A stretch of 63,653 bases of DNA, filler included, from Octopus bimaculoides (GCF_001194135.2; 7 parts of 7 records of this genome joined end to end with filler, not necessarily neighbours in it); one strand, 5' to 3'. Shown: positions 8,150-50,669, counted from the first letter of the whole stretch. Notes: generated by a model from the letters alone, not told the origin. Program-made: numbers and translations.

Positions 8150-8700
8150 GCGGAAAAACATCTCCGTTTCAAATAAATATTTCTTCAGCCACCTATTGTA
8201 AACCTTAGAGTGAATAAGAATATAAGAGAACTCTTAATCTCTACTTCTGACTCCAAGAAAACTAACATTGGAGTTTCTACACGCTGTACTCTTAAAATCA
8301 GCCGTAAGAGAGATAAGCCTTGTTCTTTGTGCAATGACGAGTCAAATGAATTCCATCAAGAATCATAACAGAAATATTATGATTTACACGGATGGTGGGA
8401 TGTGTAGAGATTCCGATTTGTTGTACTCGGGAAAATGCACGAAACACAACTTGGTTTATGTTGGTTGAACAATTTTAACAAAAGATTCAATGAGCACAGA
8501 TATGACGTCAGGCACAATAACAGCAGTTCGACAGAACTTGCCGAACATTTTGTATCAAACGGCTGCAGTTTTGAAAAAGACATGAAAATGCATATTCTCA
8601 GAAAATATTTTGAATCTGCTACACTTTCAATACTCAAGATGCATGGGGAGATATATTTTTGCGAGTTATTAACATCACGCCTTTGAGGAATAAATAAAAT
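8150..8700 (+). mobile_element. Penelope-like element linker + GIY-YIG endonuclease relic
   Basis: IFLQPPIVNLRVNKNIRELLIST linker, then CTKHNLVYVG / KRFNEHRYDVRHN..ELAEHF, the PLE GIY-YIG motifs; frameshifted. Confidence 0.8.
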
Positions 8701-9054
8701 GACAGGAGAATTTCATCAAATTTACGCAAGACTGTTTGATTAAATATTCTTCTTTTCCCTTTCTTGTCTTTTTCTCGCTTTTTCTTTTCTTTTTTTTGCC
8801 AGTTGGAAACTTGAAAATTGAAAACGGATGACGTCATTCCGTTAACGTGGAGACGCTGGTTGCCCTTGTTCATATTTTGGATTTAAATTTCTCTAATTTT
8901 CATTTTTATGTTTCACTTTTCATTTTAAACTCGACAAAGGCAGGCTAGCTGTCGAAATATCGTTCATCCAATAAAATATATATTGCAATCGCTCGCATCG
9001 CGCTCTCCATATTGTCGATTTGCCTTTGTGTAGAGTTACAGCAATCCTTTTAAA

Positions 9055-9095
9055 ATTATTATTATTTTTATTATTATTTTTATTATTATTATTAT

Positions 9096-9131
<36 letters not shown>

Positions 9132-9143
9132 CAGTAGTAGTAG
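9055..9143 (+). repeat. (TTA)n/(TAG)n compound microsatellite
   Basis: Direct reading. Confidence 0.95.
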
Positions 9144-9299
9144 TTCGGAGGCATGCGCTGGAAGAGCACGTCACCGCACCCTGGATTTGTTGGAGAGAAT
9201 CTCCTCCTGATGAATGACACCATTGTACCGTTCAGACGACAAGGTTCCAGCTCATTATTCTGTTTGAGTAGTCGTTGTATGTGAGAGTTTCACGGGGTT

Positions 9300-9520
9300 G
9301 GAGTTAAAATCTTATCACAATCTCTTTTAGTCGCTTTTACGACATATAGGGGAATCATTGGGTGTATTCTTTGACATTCCGGTCCTCACGCAGCACTAGA
9401 GCAACGTGAAATGAAGTGCTTTGCTCAAGAACACAATACATCATCCTGTCAGCGAATTGAACCCACAATCTGGCGATCATGTGTGCAACATTATAACCCT
9501 CTGGGCCACGTATGTTCACT
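9300..9520 (-). mobile_element. tRNA-headed CORE-like SINE (family A head)
   Basis: Reverse complement gives an A-box, the B-box gggttcaattc and the core tgttcttgagcaaagcacttcatttcacgttgctc. Confidence 0.75.
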
Positions 9521-11699
9521 TACTTCTCAATCCGAACAAATTCGAAACAATTCTCCCTTATGCATCTATGTTCTCTGCAGGTTTGCTCTTGCTATAATAT
9601 AGATCACACATTAAAAACAATCGAACAGATGTCATTTCAGTATGCGAAGCTCAGTTACAGCTCCTAATTCCAGAGTTTGTGCCTACATTATATGCCACTA
9701 ACTCAAACAAAAAGCCGGATATTATTCAACACATTATTCGAACTAAGGAAGAACACTGGTTTTAAGAGCATACAGAAACGGCCCAGATATTAATATTTTT
9801 GAATTGAGGGAGCAATAAGATGCTACCTCTATTTCTAAATAACATTATTAATTATTCTAACAGCAGGAATTAATATACAGCAGTAGGCTCTGTTTTCTAA
9901 CTAGGTTTTAAAATATTTTGCTAAAATAGACATGAACTTACATTTTACCGCAAATTTTTGGCGTCGTAGTCGATTTAATGAAGGATCTTAACTGTTTTTG
10001 CTTGAGCTGCTGAGCATAGTAACTAAATCTCGCGCAAATTACACCATGTAGTCATAATTAAGGAAAAGGCACAGTGAGTAATGTAATACAGTCTAATACG
10101 AAATTGTATCTACGTATACGGAATGCCTTTGTTGATATCTCTACCTAACTTCAGTTATCTGAAATTAAACAATACCATTTTATGAAATCTAAATCATCAC
10201 AAAAGGCTAGAGAGCTGTGGTTACACAGTTAATCAATACTTAGAAATTAACATCTAATATTTGCAATGCTGTGTATTTATAGACAACACATGAGAATTAA
10301 ACGTATTTAAAAATAATACAACAAATTCCGAGAAGAAATAGTACTTGGAAAAATATCTGGGAAACAAGTGGAATATATAATTGTGGTATTTAATGAAATT
10401 TCACAGCGACACGGATTCAGAAGAGGCGAAAGTAACTACAGAAAACTAGTCCATTTCTAAAATGAATGGCAGCCAGTTGATAGGTCAACTTCGTGACAAG
10501 CTGTCAGGTTGAAAAGGCCAGTAAGTTAAGTGAGACGCTATGCTGACGGTACACTGATATTTAGGTTCAAAAGAATTACGAATGCGTTTCAGAATATCAT
10601 ATGTACATTCTACTTCCTTCTTATTTATTTTGTCAGCATTATTAATGAACACCATTTCTTTACATTTCTACATTTGTGTTGAAACATCATTATACTGTCT
10701 GGACGTATTTAGTTAGAAACACTGTCAGGAGGCCTTTTTGATGAATATGTTCATCAAGATGAAAATTCCTGTCATTAAAAGATGGCAACATATCACGAGA
10801 TATAAAATGGAACGAAAAACACAGTTTGAACGCGATATTGCCATTTTAGCCAGCAATGTTATATTGACAATAGCATTGTACTAAATATAAATGAATGGTT
10901 TTAAATAGAAATCTCTCGTTATATTGTTTCAGATCAAATAGTTTATATTTGTACAGAAGAGAAGTTTGATAGAGCTAAGACGATTAAAGGCTCTAGCGCC
11001 CATTTCTTCTACTTTTAGAAACCAAATAGCTAAATATTTATGCTAAGTCTCAAGATGGCATATTGCGTCGAGCTTATCTTATTAATTCATCCGAAATTGT
11101 GAATAACGTTCCGTTTTCTGTAAAAAATTGTATTTAGCATTTACGACTTGAAGAATTAAAATGATTTTACAAAATATAATTATATTTAAAAAAACGTCCG
11201 TCTGGAGTAGATTGTAATATTTTTTCTATGAGTCAGATCTAAATTTGATTTTATACAAACTACAGAAACTACGGTATTTCTGCTTGTGAAACAAACACCA
11301 GCGAAAATTTACACACTAAAACGTTTTCGTTTTCTTAAGCAAATGTACAATTCCAGGCGCCTTATTTGTTCTGTGTTAATCAGCCTATTGCTGTCATCCT
11401 TGTTACTATTCTTATTGTCATATTTAGTGTTGTTTATTCATTTGCTATACATACATATATGTATTTATGTATGTGAGAATAAATGTAAGCGTATAGTTCA
11501 CCGTCACTTATGTGATGTTATTTTTATTGGCAGTGGTATTGGTAAATATAGTCAGTCTTTATGGTTCGTCTATTCGGCATTAGAAACGATAATTATGAAT
11601 GATTACACAAACCCAGGCACAGAAACATACAAACACCTAAGCACATGCATATAAAGTTATACATATTCATATATATGTACGTGCATCAAAATCACTGAA

Positions 11700-12620
11700 C
11701 CAAAAACAGAAACGGAGAGCCCGACTCTTTTTGCACGGGTCTAATGCATGACTGCAAGCAACTGTGACAGCAAAATAATGAAAACAGGCCCTTACACAAA
11801 ATGCAGAATGTTTAACCGGCACAGTGAGGCAGTTGACCACATTATCCTGACTGCCCAGGCCTAGGCAAATATGAATAAATATACAGACATTACCAAGTAA
11901 GTAGTTATATCGACTGAGCAATGCGCCAAAAATACAACGTAAAACTGACTACGAAATCAAAGGTAATCGCCCAGATATAAGCCTTAAGGATTGGGAAAGC
12001 ACCTGCTTGGTCATTCTTTTCTGTCTTTTGGTCAGTCCTTTCTGACCAAAATATTGCCCCCCCCCCAAAAAAAAAGAAAAGCGTAGAATTTGTCAAAATA
12101 CTATTATCCCGAAATCGAAGTATTGGAGTGAGGGGGCATGAAGGAGATTACAATACCAGTAATAGCTGGGAAAGCGAGTGTGATGAAAAAGATATGTATG
12201 AACAAAATCGTAGAAGCTATAACTGGACACCCAACACTGCACACCATCCACAAAAATAGCCCTGCTAGAAACAGCCCACATTCTATCCAAGACATTAACA
12301 ATTCAATAATACAATCCAAATAAAAGAAACCATAACGACAAGACTCATTCAGAACAGTAAATATCCAATAAAATAACGCCCACAAAAAACTGCACTCAAT
12401 CGGTCGGAGAGCAAGAACAAAATTCGCATTCAACACGCAGCAAACATTACAAGCACTAATAGCACAATACAAACATAAATACCTCAAAATGCTATAAAAC
12501 GTACTGATGTTATACAATACTAGGAACAGTTTGTATCTCACCCCATAAAGAGTTTGTATCCCACCTCAATGCTGCACACACCCCAGCATCACGGACGTGT
12601 AGCAGGTGATGTAGTAGAAA
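11700..12620 (+). mobile_element. RLE-LINE 3' fragment (copy 1 of cluster) with 3'UTR
   Basis: ETES..FA..KIMKTG..KCRM..H.EAVDHII.DCP (CCHC finger), TDYEIKGNRPDI, ITIPVIAG..IHKIALLETAHILSKTLTIQ*; degraded, with an internal deletion. Confidence 0.8.
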
Positions 12621-12739
12621 TTTACCTAAGATTAGTGAAAATGTAGGGAACTTAAACTGAACGAAAGCCGTAGATCGAACACAATTTAAGAAAGACCAAA
12701 GAGAGTAGATGAAGAAAATTAGGCAGTACAAAAAAATGT

Positions 12740-49616: not shown

Positions 49617-49793
49617 TATGAACCAAATTCTTTTTTCTTTTGTCTATTTTTTTCGTTTGTCTATTTTTTCTTTCTTTTATTTTACGTTGTCATTTTCGTG
49701 TTCTTTTGTATCGACCGATAAATATATAATTCCAACGAAACATTTCCAGTCAAAGAAAGAAAGAAGCATTCGCAGAAATTCTTCGTTTAATAG

Positions 49794-49857
49794 TCACTGC
49801 ACGTTTGCGATGGATTAATGCCGGATTATGTCCACGACCCCAACACCGTCCACAACG
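49794..49857 (+). CDS. Candidate isolated host exon (product unknown)
   Basis: ttcgtttaatAG acceptor and ACG|GTAAGA donor; locally GC/CpG-rich; open frame SLHVCDGLMPDYVHDPNTVHN (ATG at 49818); no homology recognised. Confidence 0.3.
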
Positions 49858-50240
49858 GTAAGAAGAGGAAAAGGATAAGAAACACAAGAGGGTAATTCAC
49901 AATCACAATCCTGGCCATTATTCGTTTCTTTAGTTACTTTTGTATATACGCTTGTTTATATACGTGTATATATGCATATTATGTACGTACATAATATGTG
50001 TATATACGTATCTGCGCAAGTGTGCACGGACTTGAGTGTGTAAATATGTATGTGTCTCTATATGAATGCGTTTATGTGTGTGAATATGTATCCGTACGTC
50101 ATTGTGTGTGCATATTAATATGTGTATGCGCGTATGAATATGTTTATATGTATGTTTGTATGATCGTATATAGGTGTGTGTGTGTGTGTGTGTATATTTA
50201 GCATATCTGTAATATGTATTACACACACGCACACACATGC

Positions 50241-50288
<48 letters not shown>

Positions 50289-50334
50289 GCGCACACATAT
50301 TTTTATAGATGTATCTTTTATTTTTAAAATCTTT

Positions 50335-50479
50335 TATCTTTTACTTGTTTCAGGCATTGAAATGAGGCCATGCTGGGGCACCAGCTCGAAGTGTTCAGTC
50401 GAACAAATTAACCTCAGTGCTTATTTTTTAAACCTCTTACTTATTATATCGGTGTCTTTTTGCTGAATCACTAAGTTAC
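50335..50479 (-). mobile_element. Family B SINE 3' part, interrupted at about 50479
   Basis: ttttacttgtttcag..catgctggggcacc..tatcggtgtctttttgctgaa. Confidence 0.75.
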
Positions 50480-50482
50480 TAG

Positions 50483-50531
50483 TAGCGCGGGCTACTAACG
50501 TCAAGATTCCGAGTTCGATTCCAGGCAGTGA

Positions 50532-50594
<63 letters not shown>

Positions 50595-50669
50595 CAACAT
50601 CGAAAAATACCTTAGTAATGAAAGCCCACGTTAGAAATTTCCCCCAAGACACCTGATGAAGGCTGGAGG
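50483..50669 (+). mobile_element. tRNA-like head + (AAT)n + 5' half of a hammerhead (runs into gap)
   Basis: B-box GAGTTCGATTCC at 50511-22; (AAT)n at 50536-90; GACAC CTGATGA A GGCTG GAGG at 50648-50669. Confidence 0.55.

Follow-up and report, generated by a model that had tools for sequence, protein, structure and literature searches.

Hammerhead motifs in a window of AT-rich scaffold DNA as probable ends of decayed Penelope-like elements

A set of hammerhead ribozyme motifs occurs in the 63,653-nucleotide stretch of DNA analysed here, which is called the window throughout. These motifs probably represent the hammerhead-bearing pseudo-long terminal repeats (pLTRs) of several unrelated families of endonuclease-positive (EN+) Penelope-like elements (PLEs), preserved as decayed, short, 5'-truncated insertions. 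An earlier note on this DNA had listed nine motifs, named here by position (8930, 29475, 31575, 31983, 32348, 37248, 38878, 41489, and 50653), and had proposed a little-described, ribozyme-dependent population of retrozyme-like mobile RNAs. The PLE origin is favored because the 8930 motif sits 190 nt behind a GIY-YIG endonuclease remnant, the textbook place for such a ribozyme, because three head-to-head inversions show the fold-back geometry of published PLE insertions, and because four units end 79 to 93 nt past the predicted cut, with a second copy of one tail ending at the same point. The arrangement is likely one already described across animals rather than a new system of mobile circular RNAs. 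Ordinary solo PLE ends, the outcome that the earlier note had itself named as contrary to its proposal, are thus the best-supported reading, and the label "little-described" is at odds with PMC4209133, PMC8557442, PMC3846280, and bioRxiv 2026.07.22.740005.

Penelope-like remnants and the 3' ends of the units

The window is AT-rich animal scaffold DNA with 58,850 called bases, 23 N gaps, 102 tandem-repeat entries, and many copies of short interspersed nuclear elements (SINEs) reminiscent of those of octopuses. The features bearing on the PLE origin are as follows:

8063-8740, plus strand: decayed 3' end of a PLE open reading frame (ORF), with a linker containing a CxxC motif and a GIY-YIG endonuclease, interrupted by stops and frameshifts
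8928-8964, plus strand: minimal hammerhead (motif 8930), a U3-A8 variant with U4C, stem II of 5 bp, stem I of 3 bp, and an AUAU stem III
8016-8129: head-to-head inverted repeat, 77% identical over 114 nt in self-BLAST
19519-19957, minus strand: second PLE remnant, from reverse transcriptase core to thumb (tblastn E value of 8e-11)
31908-32119: fold-back of a hammerhead 3' half and its 79-nt tail, a 91.5% inverted repeat with both arms ending at (TA)n
31983-31998, minus strand: hammerhead 3' half within this fold-back
38734-39036: older fold-back whose right arm holds 38878-38951 and whose arms end 84 to 87 nt past the cut at (TA)n
38878-38951, plus strand: both core boxes and an 8-nt palindrome, with an offset stem II and no adjacent stem I, missed by both search descriptors
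32348-32385, minus strand: minimal hammerhead with A6U, an ACGU stem III, and stems of 5 and 4 bp
32260-32385, minus strand: unit formed by the 32348 hammerhead and a 93-nt tail up to (TA)n, belonging to a very abundant family
35572-35645, minus strand: second tail of the 32348 family, found by alignment (56 identical columns), with the same 3' end at (TA)n

The decayed frame at 8063-8740 was recognized by phmmer, which retrieved 56 proteins at an E value of ≤0.001 (best, 3e-23), and tblastn agrees. Ten related proteins were scanned, with RVT_1 present in five, GIY-YIG in six, and both in four. A word-seeded protein search of the 8177-8740 remnant gave no match. The local Penelope partners claimed in the earlier note are therefore confirmed, on the plus strand at 8063-8740 and on the minus strand at 19519-19957; the relaxed descriptor (see the next section) found no hammerhead beside the latter. 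The order of reverse transcriptase and C-terminal GIY-YIG in the relatives, and the CxxC linker, are as in canonical EN+ PLEs (PMC3846280, PMC8557442), and going by the linker cysteines alone, the remnant may belong to a Neptune/Nematis-like clade.

The 8930 hammerhead follows the stop of this frame on the same strand, and 93 nt on lies (ATT)n at 9055. From 8063 to 9097, ORF remnant, 3' untranslated region (UTR), hammerhead variant, tail, and (ATT)n all share one orientation, which places an ORF of the type encoding reverse transcriptase and GIY-YIG upstream of the ribozyme. The protein homology starts at 8063, near the center of the inverted repeat at 8016-8129, and the element appears to be a 5'-truncated PLE that is inverted head-to-head where its 5' part breaks off.

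The same geometry recurs in the fold-backs at 31908-32119 and 38734-39036, in both of which the arms lie head-to-head, point outward from the center, and end in register at (TA)n, so that head-to-head inverted, 5'-truncated copies are found at three loci. Published PLEs are known for inverted 5'-truncated copies, palindromic junctions, (TA)n targeting, solo pLTRs, mobilization in trans, and nonautonomous derivatives (PMC8557442, PMC3846280). Head-to-head inversion at the 5' break and AT-rich targets are shared with canonical EN+ PLEs, whereas no full-length or tandem copy is present in the window. Family-level evidence comes from DNA and RNA reads over 30700-32440 (about 1.7 kb, holding units 31575, 31983, and 32348, with 37248 and 41489 lying outside it), where the summed contig depth gives an order of magnitude and not a copy number, single-copy contigs having a depth of 68. 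At 31908-32119, the arms reach about 1,300 to 1,500 times single copy and the center about 4 times (a depth of 284 at position 32020 versus 91,000 to 101,000 on the arms). A center this rare speaks for inversion at insertion rather than for amplification of the fold-back as a family, with the proviso that hairpins assemble badly. The fold-back families of the earlier note therefore find no support at the one fold-back measured, and a similar inversion is seen on the coding remnant at 8016-8129.

Four of the eight units end at TA or ATT repeats 79 to 93 nt past the predicted cut, namely 31983 (79 nt on each of its two arms), 32348 (93 nt), 38878 (84 to 87 nt), and 8930 (93 nt). The lizard element PAc (Poseidon) has its cut at +26 and starts reverse transcription at +111 to +118, 85 to 92 nt downstream (PMC11167929). 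A 3' end fixed shortly downstream of the hammerhead at an AT-rich or (TA)n target is thus a point of likeness to EN+ PLEs with internal initiation of reverse transcription. The diverged tail at 35572-35645, absent from the earlier list, has lost its upstream part in an N gap.

Repeats of at least 10 bp lie within 150 nt of all nine listed motifs, compared with 37% of random sites (P of the median, 0.035), and repeats of at least 16 bp show no enrichment (P = 0.43). A short TA, ATT, or CT run within 100 nt downstream of the cut is found in seven of the eight testable units versus 15.5% of random sites, a pattern chosen post hoc. The microsatellite setting described earlier therefore stands as far as short TA, ATT, or CT runs abut the units; it does not extend to (TG)n, and long microsatellites are not enriched.

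Several observations weigh against a PLE origin for the whole set. The other four units fall outside the 79- to 93-nt range (31575, about 310 nt; 34577, 49 nt; 37248, 11 nt; and 41489, at an ambiguous AT-rich run), 8930 has a 7-nt TA run at +15 as well, and the reference spacing derives from one lizard element, with the range itself picked post hoc. PLE coding sequence adjoins one of the nine motifs (8930) and is not seen beside the other eight: tblastn with the 56 PLE-related proteins gave nothing at an E value of <0.05 beyond both remnants, and Pfam found nothing in the read-through frames next to 31575, 32348, 37248/38878, and 41489. No family has a full-length parent in view. The bulged nucleotide that PLE minimal hammerheads typically have is missing from 37248 and 41489, and the hairpin stem III of 37248 resembles that of retrozyme hammerheads. 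Finally, the read evidence covers 1.7 kb only, in depths that are no copy numbers. The Pfam results are a weak negative, because even the genuine PLE remnants escaped detection: among frames of at least 42 amino acids that are not of low complexity, the 290 scanned out of 336 yielded only a weak RVT_1 match at 27160 and subthreshold noise, and 29 read-through frames yielded a single subthreshold match.

A mechanism consistent with published PLE biochemistry would begin with a PLE protein nicking AT-rich or (TA)n DNA. Reverse transcription would start inside the PLE RNA, not far 3' of the hammerhead, and copying would run back through the ribozyme and usually halt early, leaving units of 130 to 450 nt that share their 3' end and differ in their 5' end. 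Where copying halts, a switch of strands would build a mirror-image arm anew at each landing, and the inserted copies would decay afterwards. Any role of self-cleavage would lie in tandem source transcripts, in which palindromic stems III may pair as dimers, and self-cleavage is predicted to be dispensable for the insertion of these solo copies. In Octopus vulgaris, PLEs make up 6.83% of the genome in 190 families (PMC13282606), a content sufficient for ten short ends in 59 kb if the window comes from an octopus genome.

The hammerhead motifs as a set

The remaining motifs and the units around them are as follows:

41489-41533, minus strand: complete canonical type I hammerhead, with stems I and II of 5 bp each and a 10-nt palindromic stem III
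37250-37313, minus strand: type I hammerhead (motif 37248) with an intact core, a 6-bp stem I, a 2-bp hairpin stem III, and a bulged 4-bp stem II
31574-31670, minus strand: split hammerhead (motif 31575) whose core is divided by a 67-nt stem II/loop II segment holding (TA)n, with GAUA for GAAA
31260-31700, minus strand: multicopy unit around the split hammerhead, with a summed depth of about 30 to 120 times single copy
50649-50669, plus strand: hammerhead 5' half (motif 50653) with a core box, a bulged A, and a stem II strand rich in GC, interrupted at 50670 by an N gap
34577-34588, plus strand: hammerhead 3' half with an 8-nt palindrome, in a unit (34577-34637) with a 49-nt tail before (TA)n

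Among the nine listed motifs, one is complete and canonical (41489) and four, though complete, have a single defect each (8930, 31575, 32348, and 37248). Motif 38878 has intact core boxes and no adjacent stem I, 31983 and 50653 are halves, and 29475 fails; the half at 34577 is a tenth motif that the earlier list lacked. Measured against a type I core (C3 U4 G5 A6 N7 G8 A9, G12 A13 A14, A15.1-U16.1, and H17, plus stems I and II), the core is complete in 41489, 37248, and 38878 and deviates once in 32348 (A6U) and 31575 (A14U), and in 8930 it departs by U3-A8 plus U4C. The halves at 31983, 50653, and 34577 carry part of it, and in 29475 it is not found. Stems I and II closing the core are present in 41489, 37248, 32348, 8930, and 31575, and both are missing from 29475. 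The candidate at 29475-29506 (plus strand) is rejected as a hammerhead: it has GAAU in place of GAAA and lacks both stem I and a pair to close stem II, and neither descriptor picks it.

The strict descriptor, a type I hammerhead compared with 200 block shuffles, gave a single match at 41528-41494 (minus strand), where the shuffle mean was 0.005 and one match was reached in 1 of 200 shuffles. Allowing one core mismatch added 32380-32353, and this count of two was reached in 2 of 200 shuffles. The relaxed descriptor (which tolerates U3-A8, a single core mismatch, a single bulge, and ≤80 nt between core boxes) gave 10 matches versus a mean of 2.19 and a maximum of 7 in 288 shuffles, none of which got to 10. 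Five of these are sites of the earlier list (41489, 37248, 32348, 8930, and 31575, at ranks 1, 2, 3, 5, and 6), and the other five score at or near the shuffle level; the two matches scoring at least 9 have their equal in 1 of 288 shuffles. Matches at 3507, 8188, 21282, 34541, 59304, and 63618 are attributed to chance, with 8188 lying inside the PLE ORF on the opposite strand, 21282 inside an ORF, and 34541 inside a TACG/TATG repeat.

The motifs as a set are real and not chance. That all of them are chance matches in AT-rich repetitive DNA is extremely unlikely, and for the whole set this is already refuted by the shuffle counts, by the family letters that repair core and stem at 31575, and by the textbook place of 8930 behind a PLE ORF. 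Chance would be in keeping with the roughly two relaxed matches expected per shuffle, with the folding result, in which none of nine segments folded better than its shuffles (z, −1.04 to 0.98, an uninformative test), and with the lack of a hammerhead at the Rfam gathering score; it likely does explain 29475 and 8188. The whole-window Rfam scan, swamped by microsatellite-like microRNA models, listed 150 of its 158 matches, and no hammerhead family is among them. As a query of 141 nt, 41489 matched Hammerhead_HH9 at 17 bits (E value of 0.059), far under the gathering score of 52, and 37248 gave three matches, none of them a hammerhead. Of the nine motifs in the earlier note, most are real, with 29475 failing and 31983 and 50653 being halves.

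The minimal type I design, in several unrelated families of dispersed repeats, is supported. Minimal hammerheads of metazoan PLE pLTRs share with these motifs the type I topology, the short stem I, the palindromic stem III, and U3-A8 (PMC4209133), as well as the bulged nucleotide before stem II (8930, 32348, 38878, and 50653) and the G10.1-C11.1 pair (8930, 32348, and 37248). Each animal genome in that report holds thousands of mostly solo minimal hammerheads of many families, related to truncated PLEs, and opposite-strand pairs and the U3-A8 variant are described there too; many families, mostly solo copies, and opposite-strand pairs are likewise found here. Palindromes centered on ACGU or AGCU, as earlier noted for stem III, are confirmed in five motifs (31575, 31983, 32348, 38878, and 41489). 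Palindromes of 8 to 10 nt occur in five motifs, unlike the 4-nt minimal form, and these longer ones have a predicted self-pairing of −7 to −13 kcal/mol, compared with hardly any for 4-nt ones. Small palindromic helices III have been reported for flies, rotifers, and shrimps (PMC4209133). Two further differences, the A6U change and a loop II that contains (TA)n, go unmentioned in the available text of the same paper.

Motif 41489 has its predicted cut after 41494 and adjoins an N gap. Directly upstream, a decayed coding-like stretch at 41579-42280 (minus strand) may belong to the 3' end of the element from which the motif derives; it has no match in Pfam or in a word-seeded protein search. The unit of 37248 ends 11 nt before (CT)n, and its hammerhead fold lies about 10 kcal/mol above the minimum free energy. 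At 31575, two family letters differ from the window. Position 31588 reads A>T in 98% of the depth in both DNA runs, which restores GAAA, and 31670 reads C>A in 88% and 98% in two species, which restores the fifth pair of stem I. The letter at 31588 may come in part from related families with the same palindrome, and 31670 sits in the 5' half. These letters suggest that 31575 is a decayed copy of an intact family. A 20-nt pattern taken from 50653 matched four metagenome loci with entirely unrelated flanks and is put down to chance.

Copy abundance, RNA reads, and the 32348 family

All three units tested on DNA contigs (31575, 31983, and 32348) are multicopy, and all of them also occur in a second species (organism B). 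Summed depth relative to single copy is about 30 to 120 times at 31231-31702, about 27,000 times at 32352-32410, and about 170,000 times for a control SINE. Two more repeat families, at 31762-31890 and 32120-32233 (about 600 and 550 times single-copy depth), are stacked around the fold-back, and the latter is nearly absent from the organism B run.

The depth of the short 32348 segment raises the question whether some families, above all this one, are true nonautonomous PLE derivatives with short source copies of their own, mobilized in trans in an MRC1-like way. This is possible though unlikely, and it is compatible with solo PLE ends for the other units. Besides the depth, the fixed 3' end in two window copies and the eight of nine motifs without an adjoining ORF are in its favor, nonautonomous PLE derivatives have been published (PMC8557442, bioRxiv 2026.07.22.740005), and pLTRs can act in trans (PMC3846280). 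No fixed 5' end is, however, apparent for the family: most reads continue behind 32384 in sequence whose sense strand is pyrimidine rich like a PLE 3' UTR, and two organism B contigs (1,216 and 1,240 nt) extend about 1 kb past the unit on that side.

RNA evidence comes from two runs labeled as the same species, with about 6% of either run read, in fragmented cDNA libraries that are weak for end mapping. Over 30700-32440, the two strands are equally represented and 98% of the reads run on into unlike sequence. No pile-up of RNA starts or ends was found there, with only 32353 covered by several hundred reads, and no go-back joint is among the 15 of 158 joints shown. The 32348 family stands at 0.07 relative to the control SINE in RNA and at 0.16 in DNA. 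For 36990-39170, no RNA data set was listed as containing the sequence. This pattern suggests passive co-transcription of dispersed copies. The missing pile-up is weak evidence, because the cDNA was fragmented, three units were covered, and an active PLE hammerhead likewise shows no reads ending at its cut (PMC11167929).

RNA 5' ends at the cut sites, one of the checks proposed earlier, do not pile up over 30700-32440 in these two runs. The retrozyme-like reading would have tandem hammerhead repeats giving rise to circular RNAs that spread, and is very unlikely. Animal retrozymes are tandem arrays derived from pLTRs (PMC7229834, bioRxiv 2026.07.22.740005); the present units share with non-LTR retrozymes the short noncoding form, the type I hammerhead, and the PLE origin and mobilization proposed for those. 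Unlike in retrozymes, neither tandem arrays with a hammerhead in each unit nor abundant linear and circular monomer RNAs, their defining traits, are seen in the window or, for RNA, in the two runs over 30700-32440. No unit of the nine has a tandem copy in the window (N gaps adjoin 41489 and 50653), and nhmmer of the nine units against the window returned only the inverted fold-back arms and low-complexity matches. The lack of RNA end pile-ups, strand bias, and go-back joints and the lower share of the 32348 family in RNA than in DNA count in the same direction. On the other side, 37248 and 41489 have intact cores and lie outside the read evidence, and monomeric offspring are common in retrozyme families (bioRxiv 2026.07.22.740005).

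A core change is likely common across the 32348 family rather than private to the window copy, because position 32377, which encodes the U at core position 6, does not appear in the 40 differences shown out of 364, while the near-fixed differences at 32320, 32270, and 32385 are; a mixed state could be hidden. The change A6C at this position lowers hammerhead activity (PMC3088659, PMC7151607), and the available text of PMC7151607 makes no mention of A6U. A literature search on A6U gave nothing relevant among the 15 of 39 papers listed, with Lünse et al. 2017 possibly covering A6U or long palindromes, and the A6U pattern had no match in collections of viral and prokaryotic sequences, where an animal repeat would not be expected. 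Because PLE insertion in vitro was unaffected by hammerhead mutations (PMC11167929), a family could amplify greatly in spite of a crippled core. The same result, and the defects in most copies, leave the ribozyme dependence proposed in the earlier note unsupported.

The role of hammerheads for PLEs has been called unclear (PMC8557442), and for insertion in vitro they are dispensable (PMC11167929). The abundant family with a likely A6U core would make this role testable, by comparing copy number and age between intact and altered cores and by a cleavage assay. The anatomy described here is that of ordinary repeats; it helps in assigning to Penelope ends a large share of the short repeats that are unclassified in this genome, and the hammerhead-plus-tail signature offers a way to find them. 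Fairly improbable is the combination of a short, PLE-mobilized A6U family of the 32348 type, grown to tens of thousands of copies across two or more related species once its ribozyme had been crippled or retuned, with a (TA)n-loop-II family and a PLE-tailed tRNA SINE. If the A6U and SINE readings were true, they would amount to natural proof of PLE spread without self-cleavage and to a SINE partnered by a PLE instead of a long interspersed nuclear element. No paper among those listed treats octopus PLE hammerheads, going by title or abstract; supplementary data to PMC4209133, PMC8557442, and bioRxiv 2026.07.22.740005 may include such variants or cephalopod families, the PMC13282606 supplement does not contain the words hammerhead or ribozyme, and the available parts of PMC8967140 and PMC10886601 hold nothing on hammerheads.

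tRNA-like heads and other elements in the window

Two tRNA-like stretches lie upstream of listed motifs:

29195-29252, plus strand: SINE head resembling a tRNA, with both an A and a B box (Rfam tRNA, 14.3 bits, E value of 4.3, under gathering)
50513-50591, plus strand: B-box-like tRNA 3' remnant without an A box or an Rfam match, followed by (AAT)18

The first runs without a microsatellite into the SINE body holding 29475. A tRNA-headed SINE with a PLE-type hammerhead tail, mobilized by PLE proteins (29195-29600 and 50476-50669), is a quite improbable explanation of these places. A B box lies upstream on the same strand at both (235 nt from 29475 and 140 nt from 50653, one copy each), 29475 is 97 nt before (TA)n as in true units, and Schistosoma Sm-alpha and Sj-alpha are a precedent for a polymerase III, tRNA-related promoter joined to a hammerhead (PMC6765202, PMC2770079). 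Unlike in those SINEs, the pairing of head and hammerhead here is a candidate one: 29475 fails the hammerhead test, the 50513 head lacks an A box and an Rfam tRNA match, (AAT)18, a likely insertion target, separates it from 50653, and similar tRNA heads recur in the window on other bodies. Literature searches on SINE, Penelope, and tRNA listed no PLE-mobilized tRNA SINE.

A 66-nt tRNA-SINE head is 100% identical at 29192-29257 and 30228-30293, the second copy adjoining an N gap, as a recent duplication or an assembly artifact. Another 33 nt are identical in opposite orientation at 9397-9429 and 29278-29310, between two SINE-like stretches.

The paired 44-N gaps at 21579-21678, 28772-28871, 39180-39279, 52094-52193, 57039-57138, and 62464-62563 each enclose a 12-nt spacer, whose letters are identical at both places read, and are scaffolding artifacts rather than biology.

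Other retroelements are present as well. The 3' ends of a type of non-LTR element with the look of a restriction-like endonuclease and (ATT)n flanks lie at 42475-42837 (minus strand, with 15 homologues), 39280-39552 (plus strand), and 46-318 (plus strand), and we take them to be of the R4/Dong family. A 207-amino-acid open frame at 20958-21578 (plus strand) runs into a gap and has no Pfam match; it presumably resembles ORF1 of a non-LTR element. The weak RVT_1 match at 27160-27342 (plus strand; E value of 0.006), unmatched by PLE proteins, points to a remnant of another retroelement. Inverted repeats resembling a miniature inverted-repeat transposable element, 90% identical and about 410 nt apart, lie at 62648-62747 and 63159-63260.

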